Assembly (NCBI GenBank): GCA_963771465.1
Contig: CAVYTU010000011.1
Coordinates: 216,581-280,580, forward strand
Source: an uncultured delta proteobacterium
Lineage (GTDB): Bacteria > Desulfobacterota > Binatia > UBA9968
Length of the DNA stretch: 64,000 bases
Reading direction: 5' to 3'
Position 1 is the stretch's first letter; each line of letters opens with the position of its first letter. The notes under the pieces were generated by a model. The model saw only the letters and a list, made by a program, of their open reading frames with translations. It had not been told where the DNA came from and made no database searches. Below are positions 12,343-22,552 of the stretch, piece by piece. The translations under genes were made by a program, and so were the position numbers.

Positions 12343-15300
12343 ATGGCAACCACGACAAAAAAGGGTGCGAAGAAATCCACGGCGAAGCCGCGCCGGAAGG
12401 CGGCGAAAAAGTCGCGCCCGGAGAAGGCGCCAGAAGTTCCTGCGCTAAGGCGTGAGCTCGCCGAGGCTTTGGAGCAGCAGACGGCGACCAGGGAAATCCT
12501 GCGCATGATCGCGCGCGCGCCGGCGGATCTTCAGTTGGTGATGGATACGATTGCGGAGAGTGCTGCCCGCTTGTGTGATGCCAAGGATGCTTTGATATTT
12601 CGCGTTGAGGGTGATGTTCAGCAACGCGTGGCGGTATATGGAGCAATGCCAACGACAGCTATCGGAATTCGTGGCATTACTCGCGGGACTCCCGTGGGCC
12701 GAGCTATCATCGATCGGCAGACCATTCACGTAGATGACATCGCGGCAGAGATTGAAACAGAGTTCTCAGAATACCGGGCTGTTCAAAAAGCCACCGGCAT
12801 TAGAACCGCGCTCACCACACCGCTTATGCGCGACGGTGTGCCGATCGGTGTGATTAACATCCGCCGTATGGAAGTGCGCCCGTTTACAGACAAGCAAATC
12901 AAGCTACTCGAGACCTTCGCCGATCAAGCAGTAATCGCGATCGAGAACGCCCGGCTCATTCACGAACAACAGGCGCGCAATCGGGATTTGGCCGAGGCTT
13001 TGGAGCAGCAGATAGCGACGGCGGAGATACTTGGTGTGATCGCCAGTTCACCGACCGACTTAAAACCGGTGCTGGCAACCATAACCGAGCGCGCCGCGCG
13101 GGTTTGCGGTGCGGAAGATGCCGTCATGCGGCTCGTCGAGGGGAACGTCATGCGCTTGGCGGCGCATTATGGACCGGTGTCCGATGTCGCGGTGGAGCGG
13201 CCGATCAATCGACAATCACCACCTGGCCGGGCCGTGGTGGACCGGGAAATCATCCACGTCGAGAACATTCAGCTTGTAATAGCTACGGAATACCCCGAGG
13301 TTGCGGAGACTAACAGACGTGTCGGCGGCCGAACGGTGCTAGCTGTGCCATTGATGCGAGAAGGAGTCGCTCTCGGCGTCATTCATTTCCGCCGTCTCGA
13401 AGTTCGTCCGTTTTCGGAAAAACAGATCGCGCAACTCAAGAGTTTCGCCGACCAAGCCGTCATAGCCATCGAGAACGTTCGGCTGTTCCAAGAACTCCAA
13501 GTGCGCAACCGCGACCTGACCGAAGCGTTGGAACAACAGACAGCGACGGGTAAAATTCTCGAGGTCATCGCCAGCTCGCCAACGGAAATTCAACCTGTTC
13601 TCGATGCGATTGCTGACAGTGCCGCGCGACTTTGCGAGTCGCCAAGCGCGGTCATTTTTCGAGTAGACGGGGCGATTTTGCGACGTAGTGCAGCAGTAGG
13701 CGATATGCCTTCGGGAACCGTGGGCGAGGACTTGGCGATAGATCGGAACAGAATCGCCGGTCGCGCCATCGTCGACGTGCGGACCGTCCAAGTCGTGGAT
13801 ATGGCTGTCGAGGCGGGAACCGAATATCCGGCAAGCATTCAACGGCTGACAGGTACTCGAAGCGCATTGGCAACGCCGTTGATACGAGAAGGGGTCGCTA
13901 TTGGAGCTATTCTAATTCGCAGGACAGAGGTCAAACCTTTTACCGATAAGCAGATCGCACTACTAAAAACCTTCGCCGACCAAGCCGTGATCGCTATCGA
14001 GAACGTGCGGCTGTTTCAAGAACTTACCGAATCCTTGGAACAACAGACGGCTACCAGCGAGATTCTCGGCGTGATCGCCAGCTCGCCGACGGATATTCAG
14101 CCGGTGTTGGATGCCGTTGCGGAGAATGCGGCGCGGCTCTGCGATGCGATGGATGCGGTGATCTTTCGCCGCGATGGTAACGTCACTCGGCCTGTGGCGC
14201 GATATGGATCAATTCCTTTGGCGAGGCCAATAGGAGAAGTTTTTCCTGACACGAGGGGGTCGCCTCCCGGAAGGGCGATGCTCGACCGGAAAACGATTCA
14301 CGTCCATGACATCGCGGCAGAACTCGACTCGGAGTTTCCGGAAGCTAGAGTCCGCCATCAGGTTAGCGGTTCGCGCACGATACTCGCCACGCCGCTGGTT
14401 CGTGAAGATGTTTCCATCGGCGCGATCATGATTCGCCGAACCGAAGTTCGTCCCTTCTCGGAAAAGCAAATTAAACTTCTTGAGACCTTCGCCGACCAGG
14501 CGGTGATTGCCATCGAGAACGTGCGGCTGTTCAAGGAGATCCAGGAGCGCAACGCAGAGTTGCGCGAGGCGCTGGAGCATCAGACGGCGACCGCCGAGGT
14601 GCTCGGCATCATCAGCCGCTCGCCGACGGACGTGCAGCCGGTGCTCGACGCCATCGTCGAGAGCGCCGCGCGGGTTTGTGGGATTGATGACGTGGTGCTG
14701 CGGCTTCACGAGGGGAACGTCATGATTCCGCGGGCCCATTTTGGTTCGATACCTATCGGCCGCGTCGAAATCAGTGTCGATGAGCCGCAAGTTCGCTGGA
14801 TGCGCGAGCATGGCACGCTCCACGTTCCCGACGCCCAGGCGCAAAACGAGTTTCCAACGATGGGTTCAGTCAACAACGTCCGCACCTACTTAATCGTTCC
14901 CCTTCGTCAACAGGGAGAACTCATTGGAATATTGATCGCACGTCGCACTGAGGTGCGGCCCTTCACCCCGGCGCAGATCAAGCTGCTCGAAACCTTCGCC
15001 GATCAAGCGGTGATCGCCATCGAGAACGTCCGGCTGTTCCAAGAGCTCACCGAAGCGTTGGAGCAGCAGACCGCGACGAGTGAAATTCTTGGGCGTCATC
15101 GCGAGCTCACCGACCGAAATTCAGCCGGTGTTAAATGTGGTGGCGGAGAATGCAGCGCGGCTGTGTGATGCAGATGATGCTCTAGATTCTACCGGGTGGA
15201 AGGCGAGCTTAAGCGCAATGTCGCCAACATGGGAACCTACCGAGCGAAATAACCGTCGGGGAGGCGCGAGCCATTAAGCCGTGGCTCGGTCAGTGGCCGC

Positions 15301-18300
15301 GCCATTCTCGATCGAAAAATTATCCACGTTCAAAACATGATGGCAGAGAGTGAACAGGACTTTGCCGATGCCTGGCGCACTGACGAGCGCCTAGGAATTC
15401 GCACATCGCTCGCGGTACCGCTGTTGCGCGAAGGCGTCGCCGTCGGCGCGATAATGATCCGCCGTACGGAAGTCCGGCCGTTCAGCGAAAAGCAGATCGC
15501 ACTGCTGCAAACCTTCGCCGACCAAGCAGTCATCGCCATCGAGAACGTGCGCTTATTCAAGGAACTCGGCGAGCGCAACGCGGAATTGCGCGAGGCTCTG
15601 GAGCATCAGACGGCGACGGCCGAGGTGCTTGGCATCATCAGCCGCTCGCCGACGGACGTGCAGCCGATCCTCGACGCCATCGTCGAGAGCGCCGCGCGGG
15701 TTTGTGGGATAGACGACGCGGTGCTGCGGCTTCGCGAGGGCGACACGATGACGGTGCGGGCTCATTTCGGACCCATACCGACTGGCCGTCCCCAGGTCGG
15801 CGTTGATGAGGCACAGTATCGTTGGATCCAGCGAGCGGGGCGCGCTCCATATTCCGGATCTCCACGCGCAGAATGAATTCCCAGGGGTAGGTTCCGCTGG
15901 ATATCGTACCTATTTGGCCGTTCCTCTTCTCCAGCAGCGGCAACTCATCGGCGTCCTGGCCGCGCGCCGCGTCGACGTGCACCCATTCACGCCGGCGCAG
16001 ATCAAGCTGCTTGAAACCTTCGCCGATCAGGCCGTGATCGCCATCGAGAACGTGCGGCTGTTCCAAGAGCTTACAGAATCGTTGGAGCAGCAAACTGCGA
16101 CGAGTCAAATCTTGGGCGTGATCGCCAGCTCGCCGACGGACATCCAACCCGTACTGGACACGATCGCAGCAAGCGCCGCGCAAATATGCGGTGCGGACGA
16201 TGCCGTCATCCGGCTTGTTGAAGGTAATGTCCTTTGCTTGAGAGCACACCAGGGTTCCATCCCATCTTTTTCACAAGCGCATGGAGCCGAGTCCGATTCC
16301 CTCGTTCGTGGTCGCGAGTGGATACCCGGCCGAGCGGTGCTCGATCGAGAGACGATTCATATTCATGACATTGCGGCAGTTGAAAATGAGTTTCCGGAGA
16401 CGCCGCGAGAGCCAGGCGGGCAGGGGTTCGCACGGCCCTCGCTGCACCGCTACTTCGCGAAGGCGCTGCGATCGGTGTAATTTTCATTCGACGAACCGAA
16501 GTCAACCCATTTACCGATAAACAGATATCACTGCTGAAAACCTTCGCCGACCAAGCCGTGATCGCGATCGAAAATGTGCGGCTGTTTCAAGGAACTCGGC
16601 GAGCGCAACGCGGAATTGCGCGAGGCGCTGGAGCATCAGACGGCGACGGCCGAGGTGCTCGGCATCATCAGCCGCTCGCCGACGGACGTGCAGCCGGTTC
16701 TCGACGCCATCGTCGAGAGCGCCGCCCGGGTTTGTGGGATTGATGACGTGGTGTTGCGACTCCGCGAGGGCAACGCTATGGTTTCGCGGGCTCATTTTGG
16801 TTCCATACCCATGGGCCGCATCGAGATCAGTATGGATGAGCCACAGTTTCGCTGGATGCGCGAGCATGGCACGCTCCACATTCCCGACGTCCGCGCGCAG
16901 AACGATTTCCCAATGGTGGGTTCCGCCGGCAGCTCGCGCACTATGTTGATCGTTCCCCTTCGTCAGCAGGGGGAATTCATTGGAGCACTGACCGCGCGTC
17001 GCATCGAGGTGCGCCCCTTCACCCCGGCGCAGATCAAGCTTCTTGAAACCTTCGCCGACCAAGCGGTTATCGCAATCGAGAACGTGCGGCTGTTTCAAGA
17101 ACTCAAAGAGTCATTGGAGCAGCAGACAGCGACGAGTGAAATCTTGGGTGTCATCGCCAGCTCACCGACAGATATCCAGCCGGTGTTGGATGTGGTCGCA
17201 GAAAACGCAGCACGGCTATGCGATGCAACCGACGCGGTGATTCATCGCATCGATGGCGACCAGCTTCGAGTAGTGGCTAATTTCGGTCCGTTGCCGGGAC
17301 GTGGAAATCTGCAATCGCTGCCAATAGACCGTGACTCTATACCCGGCAGAGCCATAATTGACCGGCAAACTTTTCACCTTGATGACCTGGCAGCATTGCC
17401 AAAGGATGACCTTCCAGCGGGCTTTGCCAGAAGTGTCGGTGTTCGGACGGTGCTGGCCACGCCGTTGCTGCGCGAGGGAATTCCCATCGGAGCGATTCAT
17501 ATCCGTCGTATGGAGGTCCGCCCGTTCACCGAGAAGCAGATCAAACTGCTCGAAACCTTTGCAGCCCAAGCCGTGATCGCCATTGAGAATGTCCGTCTGT
17601 TTAAAGAACTCGGCGAGCGCAACGCGGAATTGCGCGAGGCTCTGGAGCATCAGACGGCGACGGCCGAGGTGCTTGGCATTATCAGCCGCTCGCCGACGGA
17701 CGTGCAGCCGGTCCTGGACGCCATCGTCGAGAGCGCCGCGCGGGTTTGCGGGATCGATGACGTGCTGTTGCGACTCAACGAGAACGACTCTATGGTTTCG
17801 CGGGCTCATTTTGGTTCCATACCGATTAGCCGCGTCGAGATCGGTATTGATGAGCCACAGATTCACTGGATGCGCGAGCATGGCACGCTGCACATTCCCG
17901 ACTCTCGCGCGCAGAACGATTTTCCAATGTTGGGTGTCGTCGGCGGCTTTCGCACTTTGTTGGCCGTTCCCCTTCGTCAGCAGGGGAAACTCGTTGGATT
18001 ACTGAACGCGCGTCGCACCGAGGTGCGCCCCTTCACCCCGGCGCAGATCAAGCTGCTTGAAACCTTCGCCGACCAAGCGGTGATCGCCATCGAGAACGTC
18101 CGGCTGTTCCAAGAACTCACCGAAGCTTTGGAACAGCAGACTGCGACGAGTGAGAATATTGGGCGTCATCGCCAGCTCACCGACGGATATTCAGCCGGTG
18201 CTGGATGTGGTGGCCGAGAATGCGGCGCGGCTGTGCGACGCGACTGATGCTCATCATCATTCGCGTCGAGGGCGACATCCTACGAGTCGTCGCACCAATA

Positions 18301-20430
18301 CGGCTCAATGCCGGTGTCGCCGAACGTATCTACCACTGAGTCGGGGCATTGCCCGGTGGCCGGGCTATGATCGACCGGCAGACCATTCACATCCATGACA
18401 TCGCCGCGGAAGTCGAGACCGAGTTTCCGGAAGGCTAGAGTTGCTCAGCAACGTTCCGGTACTCGCACCGTACTTAACACGCCGTTGCTACGCGAAGGCG
18501 TAGCGATTGGTCGATCCTGATTCGCCGAACCGAAGTTCGCCCTTTTCAGAGAAACAGATCGCTCTGCTCGAAACATTTGCTGACCAGGCTGTCATCGCCA
18601 TCGAGAACGTCCGGCTGTTCAACGAGCTCGATACCCGCAACCGTCAGCTCACCGAAGCGTTGGAGCAGCAGACGGCGACGAGCGAGATCCTGCGCGTGAT
18701 CGCCAGCTCGCCGACGGATATTCAGCCGGTGCTGGATGTGGTGGCGGAAAACGCGGCGAGACTGTGCGACGCACCGATGCTGATATTTACCGTCGTGAAG
18801 GCAGCGACTATCGGATCGTGGCCGCGCGTGGAAATATGCCGATACCTCGGCCGACAGAGGCTCGTACCGCTCATCCGTGGCTTGCCTCCTGGACGAGCGA
18901 TCGATCGACCGGCAGCCCATCCATATTCATGACTGTCGAGTGCGGAAGCTCAGCAGAATTCCCCGAAGCCAAGGCAATGGTCAAAAACCACTCGGTCTCC
19001 GGACTGTTCTTGGCCGTGCCCTTACTTCGTGAAGGCATTGCGATCGGGGCGATCCTAATTCGTCGCAATGAGGTTCGACCTTTCAGCGATAAGCAGATCG
19101 CGCTACTCGAAACATTCGCTGATCAAGCCGTCATCGCCATCGAGAACGTGCGGCTGTTCCAAGAATTGCAAGAGCGAACGCAGCGAACTGATGGAGTCGG
19201 TCGAAGAAATGAAAGCGCTGGGCGAAGTCGGCCAGGCGGTGAGCTCGACGCTCGATCTCGAAACCGTGCTCGAAACCATCGTCGCACGCGCGGTCGATCT
19301 GTCGGGAACCGATTGCGGTGTCATTTACGAGTACGACGAAGCACGCAAGAGTTTTATTTGCGCGCAAGCCACGACATGGAAGCTGAGGCTGTCGAGAGGC
19401 TGCGAGCAGGCGCGAATTCGATTGAGTGAGAGGCGACTGCGGGTCAAGCGGCGCTCACTCGCGCGCCGGTGCAGAACGCGGATACTTGGATCAGCGTGAG
19501 ACGTCCGGCTTCGCGCGATCCGGCCGACTGCTGACGCGGCTCGGTTATCGTTCTCTTCTACCGTGCCGCTCTTGCGCGAGCAGCAGATTGTGGGCGCGTT
19601 GACGGTCTGGCGGCGGCAAGTCGGGGAATTCGATCCCGAAGTCGATGAATCTGCTGCAAACCTTCGCGACCCAATCGGCTCTGGCGATCCATAACGCGCG
19701 GCTGTTCCGCGAGATCGGCGACAAAAACCGCGAGATCGAAGCGGCCAATCGGCACAAGTCGGAGTTTCTCGCCAACGTGTCACACGAGCTGCGCACGCCG
19801 CTGAACGCGATCATCGGCTTTTCGGAAGTGCTATTGGAAAAATTCTTCGGCGAGCTAAACGACAAGCAGAACGAATATGTCGATGACATTCTTTCTTCCG
19901 GGCGCCATTTGCTGTCGCTGATCAACGACATCCTCGATCTGTCCAAGGTCGAAGCCGGGCGGATGGAGTTGGAAGTGACGCCCTTTTTCTTGCCGGATGC
20001 GATCGAGAACGCGCTACTGCTCGTGCGCGAGCGCGCCAGCCGGCATGGGATCAAACTTGATCGCGTCGTCGACGACCGCCTCGGCGACTTCACCGGCGAC
20101 GAGCGCAAGGTGAAACAGATTCTCGTCAACCTGCTGACCAACGCGGTAAAGTTCACGCCGGAGGGCGGACAAATTCGGGTGGAAGCTAGATTGGGCGACC
20201 GCGCGATAATCGTTTCTGTTATCGACACGGGAATTGGCATCGCCAAGGAAGATCAGGAGGCGATCTTCGAAGAGTTCCGCCAAGCCGGCGGCAACTACGC
20301 ACACAAGCGCGAAGGCACGGGACTGGGTTTAACTTTGACGAAACGCTTCATCGAAATGCACGGCGGCAAAATCTGGGTCGAGAGCGAGGTGGGGAAAGGA
20401 AGTACTTTTACATTCACGTTACCGACATAG
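12343..20430 (+). CDS. Giant cytoplasmic sensor histidine kinase with 14 GAF repeats plus HisKA/HATPase (~2,690 aa), broken by many indels
   Basis: 14 copies of the (T/S)[18 protein letters not shown] motif across frames; C-terminal [31 protein letters not shown]; no transmembrane segment seen. Confidence 0.8.
14545..18110 (+). repeat. Four copies of one GAF subtype ([18 protein letters not shown]..) at ~1.02 kb period
   Basis: Copies start at 14545, 15571, 16601 and 17615, alternating with more divergent GAFs. Confidence 0.9.
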
Positions 20431-20466
20431 TGAGTGTGGCAGGTCTGTATGCTGGAAGGACTTATT

Positions 20467-20913
20467 CACCACGAAGGACACGAAGGTCACGAAGGGAAGA
20501 CAAAGACGATAGTGAAATTTGATGACTTATCAAACAAGTTCATCGGTTGTGCCATCGAGGTCCACCGCGAGCTTGGGCCTGGTTTGCTTGAATCAACTTA
20601 CGAACAGTGCCTCGCTTATGAACTCAACCGAGCCAAGATTCCATTCAAACTTCAAGTGGAGTTGCCCGTTGAGTACAAAGAAATCCGGCTTGACTGTGGA
20701 TACAGAATTGATCTGCTGGTCGACGATCGTTTGATCGTTGAATTGAAAAGCGTCGATCAGTTGCTCAAAATTCATGAAGCACAGGTGTTAACCTACATGA
20801 AACTCGCTGCGATTGGAGTCGGCTTACTGATCAACTTTAACGTTGATGTATTGAGAAGAGGTATTAGAAGATTTGTTTTCTGAACCTTCGTGTCCTTCGT
20901 GACCTTCGTGGTG
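20467..20913. mobile_element. Putative GxxExxY cassette bounded by 29-bp inverted repeats built from 9-bp units
   Basis: Left 20467-20495 CACCACGAAGGACACGAAGGTCACGAAGG; right 20885-20913 matches its reverse complement at 27/29; sits between the kinase and its regulator; mobility is inferred. Confidence 0.55.
20512..20883 (+). CDS. GxxExxY protein (PD-(D/E)XK nuclease-like)
   Basis: HRELGPGLLESTYEQCL, RIDLLV..IVELKS, QVLTY, GLLINF; GTG start at 20512 inferred. Confidence 0.92.
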   Translation: MKFDDLSNKFIGCAIEVHRELGPGLLESTYEQCLAYELNRAKIPFKLQVELPVEYKEIRLDCGYRIDLLVDDRLIVELKSVDQLLKIHEAQVLTYMKLAAIGVGLLINFNVDVLRRGIRRFVF

Positions 20914-20978
20914 GACAAAATCAAAACACCCGGAGCGATTCTGCTTCACAGTAGACAACCGTGGTCAAGGAGAAGTCC

Positions 20979-21362
20979 GTGGCGAATGAACTGATTTTGA
21001 TCATCGAGGATAACGAGAAGAACCGTAAGCTCTGCCGCGATGTGTTGCAGGTGAAAGGTTATCGGACCATCGAGTCTGAGACCGCGGAAATAGGGCTTGA
21101 TCTCGCGCGCGGTCAAACGCCGGATTTGATTCTCATGGACATCCAGCTGCCCGGCATGGACGGCATCACGGCGATGAAGCAGCTCAAGGCTGATGCGCAG
21201 ACGAAAACCATCCCCATCATCGCGATCACCGCGTCGGCGATGACCAACAATCGGACAAGTATGCTTGCCGAAGGATTCGACGGCTACCAGACCAAGCCGA
21301 TCGCGTTGAAAGACTTTCTCGGCGAAGTGGAACGTGCGCTGGCGGCGCGGGGGAACTCGTAA
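20979..21362 (+). CDS. Single-domain response regulator (DivK-like)
   Basis: IIEDN, DLILMDIQLPGMDG, TASAM, TKP; AAGGAG RBS. Confidence 0.9.
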   Translation: MANELILIIEDNEKNRKLCRDVLQVKGYRTIESETAEIGLDLARGQTPDLILMDIQLPGMDGITAMKQLKADAQTKTIPIIAITASAMTNNRTSMLAEGFDGYQTKPIALKDFLGEVERALAARGNS

Positions 21363-21436: not shown

Positions 21437-22552
21437 GTGAACACTCCAGCCAAAATACTCGTCGTCGACGACACGCTGCGCAACGTCAAGCTGCTCGCCG
21501 ATCTGTTGAGTGTCAAAGGCTATGCCGCGATGACGGCTTCTTCCGGACAAGAAGCGTTGGCTAAGATCGCCGCGGAGGCGCCGGACTTGGTGCTTCTCGA
21601 CGTGGTGATGCCGGAGATGAGCGGCTACGAGGTTTGTCAGAAGATTCGCGAGAATTCAGCGACGGCGATGCTGCCGGTTATTATGGTCACGGCGCTCGAT
21701 CCCGCGGAAGAACGGGTAAAGGGAATTGAAGCAGGCGCGGATGATTTTCTCACCAAGCCGATCAATCAAGGCGAGTTGCTTGCGCGGGTGAAGTCGCTGC
21801 TGCGCATTAAGGAATTGCACGACACAGTTCAATCGCAAGCCGCCGAGCTCTCCGACTGGAACAAAAACTTGGAATTGCGGGTTCAGGAGCAGGTTCAACA
21901 GCTCGAACGCTTGGGACGGTTAAAACGATTCTTTTCACCTCAACTGGCCGAGCTGATCGTCAGCGGCGGCGCCGATGATCCGTTGAAGACGCACCGCTGC
22001 GAGCTGACCGTGGTGTTTCTCGACCTGCGCGGTTTCACGGCTTTCGCCGAAACCGCCGAGCCGGAAGAAGTGATGGGCGTGCTGCACGAGTATCATGCGG
22101 CGATGGGACGATTGATTCTCGATTACGAAGCGACGCTGGAACATTTTGCCGGCGACGGCATGATGATTTTCTTCAATGACCCGGTGCCGGTGGCCAATCC
22201 CGCGGAGCGGGCAATCCGCATGACGCTGGCGATGCGTGCGCGCGTGACCGAGCTTGGCGCCAAGTGGCAGAAGCTCGGTTACGATCTCGGCTTCGGCGTC
22301 GGTATCGCGCAGGGCTATGCGACCATCGGCGCCATCGGCTTCGAAGGACGCTGGGAATACGGCGCCATCGGCAGCGTGCCCAATCTAGCAGCGCGTCTGT
22401 GCGGCGAAGCGAAGCCGGGAGAGATTTTGATCGCTCAACGGCTATTGGCCAGCAGTGAAGAGTGGGTCGAGTACGAAGCGGTGGGCGAGTTAACGCTCAA
22501 AGGTTTTCATCGTCCGGTGCCGGCTTACCGCGTCCTGCGGCTGAAGGATTAG
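21437..22552 (+). CDS. Response regulator receiver fused to class III adenylate/guanylate cyclase
   Basis: VVDD, LLDVVMP receiver; FLDLRGFT, FAGDG, PNLAARL cyclase motifs. Confidence 0.9.
   Translation: MNTPAKILVVDDTLRNVKLLADLLSVKGYAAMTASSGQEALAKIAAEAPDLVLLDVVMPEMSGYEVCQKIRENSATAMLPVIMVTALDPAEERVKGIEAGADDFLTKPINQGELLARVKSLLRIKELHDTVQSQAAELSDWNKNLELRVQEQVQQLERLGRLKRFFSPQLAELIVSGGADDPLKTHRCELTVVFLDLRGFTAFAETAEPEEVMGVLHEYHAAMGRLILDYEATLEHFAGDGMMIFFNDPVPVANPAERAIRMTLAMRARVTELGAKWQKLGYDLGFGVGIAQGYATIGAIGFEGRWEYGAIGSVPNLAARLCGEAKPGEILIAQRLLASSEEWVEYEAVGELTLKGFHRPVPAYRVLRLKD

Follow-up and report, generated by a model that had tools for sequence, protein, structure and literature searches.

Two copies of a GAF module in one bacterial sensor kinase differ in their cores almost only at sites that change the protein and in their flanks only at silent sites, and the question is which process leaves such a pattern. 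The copies lie in the 64,000-nucleotide stretch of DNA analysed here (hereafter the window), where a single giant gene at positions 12343..20430 of the + strand encodes a cytoplasmic sensor histidine kinase; the genome is that of a soil Candidatus Binatia bacterium. One type of module, which we label type B, occurs four times in this gene (starting at 14545, 15571, 16601 and 17615) and alternates with other module types; the copy at 16601 is here called A and the copy at 17615 B. A preliminary description of the window had proposed that the ligand-binding core of the module is diversified by a template acting in trans, in the manner of a diversity-generating retroelement (DGR), by gene conversion among paralogs, or by strong positive selection. 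We consider it rather probable that A and B, as paralogous modules within a kinase of about 14 GAF domains, differ through ordinary paralog evolution with no targeted mutator.

Divergence of modules A and B

We define the core as the 85 codons at 16751-17005 of A and 17765-18019 of B, and the flanks as the 50 codons before and the 33 codons after it; residue n of type B lies at window position 16601 + 3 x (n-1). Codon comparison of 16601-17104 with 17615-18118 reproduces the counts first reported exactly: the 83 flank codons hold 13 synonymous changes (8 upstream, 5 downstream) and 0 amino-acid changes, and the core holds 26 amino-acid-changing codons and 3 purely synonymous ones (Fisher p=9e-9 for the contrast in nonsynonymous and synonymous change between core and flank). 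The five reported double changes at codon positions 1 and 2 (CGC/AAC, GGC/AAC, TCC/GTC, ATC/GCC and GCA/TTA) are all present. The copy at 14545 does vary at many of the same codons, as had also been reported, with a third residue at 11 of the 26, including all four examples that had been named; the enrichment within the core is significant (Fisher p=0.003).

By Nei-Gojobori counting, the A-B core has 32.5 nonsynonymous and 4.5 synonymous differences, with dN 0.190, dS 0.077 and an omega of 2.47 that is not significantly above 1 (binomial p=0.089), and the flanks have dN 0 and dS 0.246. The excess of flank over core synonymous divergence is marginal for this pair (p=0.034). The 37 nucleotide differences in the core split 19:11:7 over codon positions 1, 2 and 3. 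Random sequencing error is excluded as their source, since the 83 flank codons are without amino-acid change and 35 of the 37 differences are known alleles of the family. A-B is the most extreme of the 120 pairs among the 16 type-B copies of this genome and of the 496 pairs among 32 clean units from this and other genomes, and is thus an extreme draw from the ordinary pattern. The type-B copy at 14545..15048 (+), with 86% amino-acid and 87% nucleotide identity to 16601-17104, has a flank dN of 0, a core dS of 0.51 and a core omega of 0.33 relative to A.

The gene family in this and related genomes

In the 8.1-kb gene, about 14 GAF modules are arranged in tandem, repeating every 505-528 nt, and HisKA and HATPase_c come after them, as seen from three-frame translation, Pfam matches (GAF, GAF_2, GAF_3, HisKA and HATPase_c), intact homologs and a best-frame map drawn against the latter. 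The genome itself (G000; 6.9 Mb in 19 contigs, 99.36% complete, 6.29% contamination) contains 12 more type-B copies in two further arrays, on contigs C14 and C15, which brings the total to 16. A tblastn search with module A returned 70 matching pieces in this genome, all on C11 (on which window position equals contig position minus 216580), C14 and C15. The giant array at C14:279317-292164 has about 25 modules, 9 of them type B, and that at C15:789149-794334 about 10, of which 3 are type B; short BLASTN matches to the flanks at C14:396922-397518 belong, as tblastn shows, to a separate two-module GAF locus.

The family is intact in other genomes of the genus, with open frames of 1480-3057 aa, and one intact homolog of 3049 aa has 16 GAF domains, HisKA and HATPase_c. 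The closest public loci are soil metagenome-assembled genome (MAG) records of Candidatus Binatia or 'uncultured delta proteobacterium', and records of Rokubacteria/Methylomirabilota and Rhizobiales contain modules with about 50% identity. Contigs of 1.6-6 kb (L032-L034, L036, L037, L042, L046) that are binned as Blastocatellia, Udaeobacter, Nitrospira, Methylomirabilota, Pseudomonadales and Acidobacteriota MAGs also carry type-B modules, 79-85% identical to A; these are probably mis-binned Binatia repeat fragments, not true occurrences. A full-text search of a limited collection of papers, for Binatota histidine kinases, GAF concerted evolution and Binatia GAF, found nothing in print on these arrays.

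Selection on core and flanks

When indels are projected out of the 16 copies of this genome, core omega has a median of 0.42 and exceeds 1 in 4 of 120 pairs. Of the 32 clean in-frame units, 6 belong to this genome and the remaining 26 to intact arrays in seven others; core omega in this set exceeds 1 in 2 of the 496 pairs (a few of which have saturated dS and yield no ratio), namely A-B and A with a unit of genome G012. Among the copies of this genome the mean core pN/pS is 0.98 at core pS <0.15 and 0.43 at core pS >0.45, and the nonsynonymous distance has a non-zero intercept.

Codon models were fitted with our own GY94/F3x4 likelihood code on IQ-TREE topologies. The one-ratio model M0 gives a core omega of 0.42 for the 32 units and 0.37 for the 26 units of other genomes, and a flank omega of 0.025 for the latter; in both sets about 60% of core codons have an omega of 0.18-0.19 and about 35% an omega of 1. 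Model M2a places 8% of core codons of the 32 units in a class at 2.07 (likelihood-ratio test (LRT) vs M1a 19.9, p=5e-5), with sites 59, 62, 108, 112 and 129 at P>0.8. For the 26 units of other genomes the class is about 4% at 1.99 (LRT 4.1, p=0.13), and site 129 alone is picked (P>0.7). A low-dS clade of 12 units, made up of A, B and ten units from public loci, gives a core omega of 0.90 (vs 1: p=0.47) and a class of 12% at 4.2 (LRT 34.6, p=3e-8), with sites 59, 62, 72, 83, 111, 112, 129 and 131 at P>0.8.

The proposal of strong positive selection thus finds weak support. For the family as a whole, core dN/dS lies below 1 in the larger alignments, an outcome that the preliminary description had named as refuting it, and the proposal retains a foothold in the M2a class seen when units of this genome are included and in the low-dS clade. 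Because recombination is present in the core, these tests are liberal, and we read the codon models as weakly suggesting positive selection at a handful of sites, a signal that is not robust.

Recombination and shared variants

In the PHI test on the core, the observed value of 1.221 lies below the mean of 1.277 obtained by permutation (sd 0.019; p=0.001). Of the 37 positions at which the cores of A and B differ, 35 have both alleles represented in at least 3 of 44 clean units taken from other genomes. Identity among type-B units is 87-90%, and among the units interleaved with them 64-69%. Synonymous distance in the core tracks that in the flanks only weakly (Spearman 0.18, 325 pairs of 26 foreign units). 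Gene conversion among paralogs, one of the three processes originally put forward, is therefore supported as a contributor, and the combination of a recombination signal with type-B copies that resemble each other more than their neighbours do is that of concerted evolution.

Recent tandem duplication of a 1-kb double unit was considered and is excluded, the neighbouring modules being 64-69% identical; for the same reason the similarity of A and B does not stem from such a duplication. A best-identity scan of the array against foreign loci was set aside as biased, those loci having been chosen by their similarity to module A.

Structure and place of the variation

An AlphaFold2 model of module A, built from a 34-sequence alignment, has a GAF fold (pLDDT 87.3, pTM 0.82), and Foldseek ranks highest the GAF domains found in sensor kinases, PtsP, PDE2A and DosS (E 2e-10; many GAF structures match at probability 1.00). 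By sequence, the closest relatives of solved structure are the haem-binding GAF-A domains of DevS/DosT (E 3e-8). In the model the invariant flanks correspond to a linker helix (residues 2-25), alpha1 (31-45) and a C-terminal helix (142-167). Along beta1, beta5 and beta6, conserved hydrophobic positions (L52, L54, L116, V118, L120, G128, L130, A132) alternate with the most variable ones (51, 55, 115, 117, 129 and 131, with up to 10 different residues), and the other variable stretches are the loops 68-78 and 97-112. Variable residues were placed from the secondary structure and from their alternation along the strands, and the assignment of a fixed face and a presumed pocket face follows general GAF architecture. 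In the model the fixed face would pack on the invariant helices, and the variable face together with the lid loops would line a putative pocket.

The 50-residue N-terminal and 33-residue C-terminal helices of type B are almost invariant across species. Coiled-coil helical linkers join GAF domains and are generally poorly conserved in sequence, according to the passages of PMC1592074 that treat them, and set against that account the near-invariant type-B linker is unusual.

Several arginines and histidines within the variable core are invariant or nearly so (R53, R63, H65, H89, H93, R113 and R133). It is conceivable that a common anionic or haem-like ligand core lies behind them.

A probable history of ordinary paralog evolution

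We suggest that each module has a helical spine (inter-GAF linker, alpha1, C-terminal helix) that passes without a break into the module after it. This spine is under extreme purifying selection, which leaves only synonymous changes there. In the beta-sheet core the helix-facing residues would be fixed as well, and constraint on the pocket-facing residues and lid loops would be weak, diversifying selection perhaps acting on a handful of them. Unequal crossing-over or gene conversion may have multiplied the type-B modules and evened out some of their differences, both within the array and among the three arrays, and because of this, pairs such as 16601/17615 would be close at synonymous sites and yet carry different pocket variants. 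These variants would be drawn from a pool common to paralogs and species. The gene architecture, the regimes of selection, the absence of DGR parts, the inheritance of variants and the recombination signal are shown by the data; the pocket position of the variable residues, conversion as the cause of the low dS and what the modules bind are what we infer.

Several observations weigh against this account. Gene conversion alone cannot separate silent from replacement sites, so that selection must be added to it, and over the whole unit the PHI test falls short of significance (p=0.62). The omega of 0.90 and the class at 4.2 in the low-dS clade go beyond relaxed constraint, which predicts about 0.4-0.5, unless the data are flawed. 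The codon models themselves were run with relative branch lengths fixed, on a single tree and with naive rather than Bayes-empirical-Bayes posteriors. Moreover, the core of A is 88-92% identical in nucleotide sequence to many units in genomes G003, G037, G039 and G040, and at core third positions the base agrees with the family majority in 92% of cases for A and 88% for B, compared with 43-81% in the other 30 units. Neither the third-position majority nor the cross-species similarity of core A follows from simple conversion within a genome.

The same four genomes share 78-79% identity with this one in ordinary syntenic genes. Between A and a unit on G003:C29 the core dS is 0.067, and the cyclase gene adjoining the array has a dS of 1.05. 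Core synonymous divergence is 0.07-0.14 as against 0.2-0.4 in the flanks. The best core matches of B are in G012:C153 (92% nucleotide identity) and then in a non-syntenic array on G003:C15 (91%); relative to its G012 counterpart, B has an omega of 0.50 with 13 nonsynonymous differences. Relatives of the module-A core in syntenic arrays are found in G003:C29 (locus L011, 10159-10662), G040:C27, G039:C36 and G037:C11.

The low core dS across species could reflect real exchange, unusual conservation or a bias of metagenome consensus sequences. On a more speculative reading, which we think possible and would not call likely, type-B cores may be exchangeable cassettes that move among modules, among the three arrays and among Binatia species, with the near-invariant linker DNA serving as recombination homology. 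Such exchange would explain why core dS is below flank dS, why it is about ten-fold below that of the neighbouring single-copy gene across species of about 79% identity, and why core B has its closest relatives in other species, in arrays that are not syntenic. That synonymous divergence between species is so low is the residual puzzle of the locus, and cassette exchange could be what it reflects.

Alternative explanations

The low synonymous divergence of A and B could be unreal if reads of paralogous modules or of related species had been merged during assembly, which would draw synonymous sites to the family consensus and leave indels behind; the amino-acid variants would even then be genuine variants of the family. 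We hold this to be unlikely as the explanation of the A-B pattern, and give it serious weight. Within its 8.1 kb the gene switches frame about 12 times and contains some in-frame stops, whereas neighbouring genes have long open frames. The arrays on C14 and C15 contain many 1-base indels, mostly inside the variable cores, and yet the projected frame gives a conserved protein. Three of the four type-B units on C11 have flanks without amino-acid change (the fourth has 4), unlike what is seen in old pseudogenes.

At two homologous linker sites, 15083-15181 and 18156-18254, both in modules that follow type-B units, the frame shifts by +1 in a short base run and is compensated 99 nt downstream; identical paired shifts at homologous sites suggest a context-specific consensus error and not independent mutations. 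Independent soil contigs are one base shorter at 18154/18156. An old pseudogene is an unlikely cause of the frame shifts, given that the projected frames retain conserved protein, and we regard the shifts in this gene as probable assembly errors.

Few-contig assemblies tend to have broken arrays (open frames of 235-324 aa in G003) and many-contig ones intact arrays; G015, with about 20 contigs, is an exception whose arrays are intact. The 88-92% matches to the core of A likewise abound in few-contig assemblies (G003, G037, G039, G040), the best match in many-contig ones being 87% or lower. Both tallies by contig count include G005, on which none of our claims rests. The third-position majority of A and B, and the loss of the positive-selection signal when units of this genome are left out, also fit a biased consensus.

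In Logan contigs from soil, sediment, rhizosphere and mine-drainage metagenomes, no sequencing run contained half or more of the sampled words of the window, the best share being 0.39. When four metagenomes were aligned to the window, the fragments were 90-320 nt long, fell on the conserved flanks and in no case spanned it. At 90% identity or more, these four soil metagenomes from four studies reach summed depths of thousands on the linker flanks (deep bins at 16528-16720, 17040-17167 and 18000-18190) and of tens or less on most core bins. As metagenome contigs pile up on the linker-coding flanks, this linker sequence is very abundant in soil communities; the uneven depth also speaks for a merging of reads.

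Against merging, of the sites with a family heterozygosity of at least 0.5, 18 of 30 at first and second positions differ between A and B but only 6 of 43 at third positions, a distinction that a mixed-read consensus should not make. A and B have no indel, and the distinctive residues of B recur in the intact frame of the many-contig G012:C153 at 92% core nucleotide identity. Low-dS units also occur on contigs with short-read-style names (L029, L032, L036, L037), with a core omega of 0.54-0.88 and a flank dS above the core dS. The intact arrays of few-contig G015 do not fit either, and that few-contig genomes are long-read assemblies is deduced from contig counts only.

It is improbable, in our view, that A and B are recent duplicates in one of which the ligand pocket was re-tuned by a burst of positive selection, with purifying selection following later. 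The A-B core omega of 2.47, with 32.5 nonsynonymous to 4.5 synonymous differences, invites that reading; the omega of 0.50 between B and its G012 counterpart suggests conservation after divergence; and M2a is preferred both in the 32 units and in the low-dS clade, with sites 59, 62, 112 and 129, on the variable strand face or a lid loop, picked in both sets. That omega itself is not significantly above 1, however, and the pair was chosen as the extreme of hundreds. Nearly all of the supposedly new states are already present in other units and species, which fits a shuffling of old variants better, and the neighbours of A and B, at 65-69% identity, speak against a recent double-unit duplication. 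The 26 units of other genomes give no signal, and recombination inflates tests of this kind.

A DGR consists of a template, a reverse transcriptase and A-to-N changes, and its targets are C-terminal variable regions of C-type lectin or Ig-like domains, in the passages cited from PMC7517822. That such a system, or another form of targeted hypermutation, copies an A-rich template into the GAF core through a reverse transcriptase would account for local amino-acid variability in a ligand-binding domain on a constant scaffold and for the several variable NNC codons that changed at positions 1 and 2. The genome gave 0 RVT_1 matches at E<=0.001 in a search that detected the family in 3 of 14 known genomes used as controls. 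With 16601-17104 as query, a whole-genome BLASTN search returned no template copy outside the coding GAF arrays on C11, C14 and C15. Adenine bias is absent, with A at 7 of the 37 core differences in copy 16601 and at 9 in copy 17615. The variants are common to several species: 19 of the 26 residues of B recur in a G012 unit and 13 of the 26 of A in a G003 unit. Third positions vary freely across the family. Finally, A and B are internal, being modules 9 and 11 of about 14, and have a GAF fold, in contrast to the targets described in that source. A DGR is excluded as far as an assembly can show, and we assign hypermutation of any such kind a negligible probability.

Other features of the locus

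Four GAF modules of other types open the array at 12454..14541 (+; about 12454-12966, 12976-13497, 13504-14025 and 14020-14541), with 45-52% identity in tblastn of module A, and Pfam finds five GAF stretches in 12343-15093. The type-B module at 15571..16072 (+) was traced by tblastn over two frames and by the frame map; it has a frame switch within its core near 15840, and its projected translation is still good GAF sequence despite this. Module A (16601..17104, +) divides into linker and alpha1 (16601-16750), the variable core and the C-terminal helix (17006-17104). A module of another type at 17099..17611 (+), 50% identical to A in amino acids by tblastn, lies between A and B and shares 65-69% nucleotide identity with the equivalent neighbours of other type-B modules. 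Module B follows at 17615..18118 (+). Across 16574-18160, Pfam finds three GAF stretches (PF01590 / PF13185 / PF13492) with GAF at E 6.1e-41. The last three GAF modules occupy 18119..19640 (+; about 18156-18629, 18636-19168 and a divergent one before the kinase), placed by tblastn and the frame map, and several of the frame switches fall among them; in intact homologs the last module before HisKA is 28-30% identical.

The kinase core at 19645..20430 (+) has HisKA (1.1e-24), with the phospho-acceptor histidine in the H-box SHELRTPL, and HATPase_c (2.3e-33), and response-regulator genes lie downstream, as expected of a two-component histidine kinase. These are a single-domain response regulator at 20961-21362 (+; Pfam Response_reg) and a response regulator fused to an adenylate/guanylate cyclase at 21437-22552 (+; Response_reg and Guanylate_cyc), which are likely to be partners of the kinase. 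The cyclase gene is also syntenic beside the array in G003. An open reading frame of 149 aa at 20434-20883, between the kinase and the regulators, matches PDDEXK_3 of the PD-(D/E)XK group (E 1.9e-43) and has a His/Glu-rich N-terminus, HHEGHEGHEGK.

Relation to known systems and significance

The case belongs to two known kinds, the multi-GAF sensor kinases and the concerted evolution of repeats. With tandem-GAF proteins such as CyaB2, PDE2A, DevS/DosT and the cyanobacteriochrome kinases, the array shares the GAF fold (Foldseek matches 6oap, 3ibj (PDE2A) and 2w3e (DosS)) and the joining of GAF domains by long helices, which here feed HisKA-HATPase_c. Known tandem-GAF proteins have 2-7 GAF domains, whereas the present ones have 14-16, and here a single module type recurs, with four copies in the gene and 16 in the genome. 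The type-B linker helices are near-invariant, unlike the generally poorly conserved linkers described in the part of PMC1592074 cited above.

Like the DGR of Bordetella phage BPP-1, the array varies in the presumed ligand-contacting part of a constant scaffold, but here there is no reverse transcriptase, template repeat or adenine pattern, the variation is inherited and the fold is GAF. A DGR aimed at a GAF sensor, if true, would have been a new class of DGR target. In the red and green opsin genes of primates, gene conversion homogenises silent sites and the spectral-tuning residues persist. Our array has in common with such genes a low synonymous and high nonsynonymous divergence of neighbouring paralogs, shared polymorphism and a recombination signal; it differs in that the units are domains within one gene, and across three bacterial genes, with conserved linker DNA flanking the cores.

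We point out that metagenome-assembled sensor arrays with frame shifts and possibly consensus-biased bases warrant caution, as dN/dS from a single pair can mislead. In conclusion, giant sensor kinases with 14-16 GAF domains are documented here in the uncultured soil phylum Binatota. The frozen spine and the variable face mark the residues that probably set ligand specificity (59, 62, 72, 83, 108-112, 129 and 131), and those that probably carry the signal. If cassette exchange were true, these arrays would amount to a combinatorial library made by nature, in which sensor pockets are varied on a signalling spine that stays fixed.

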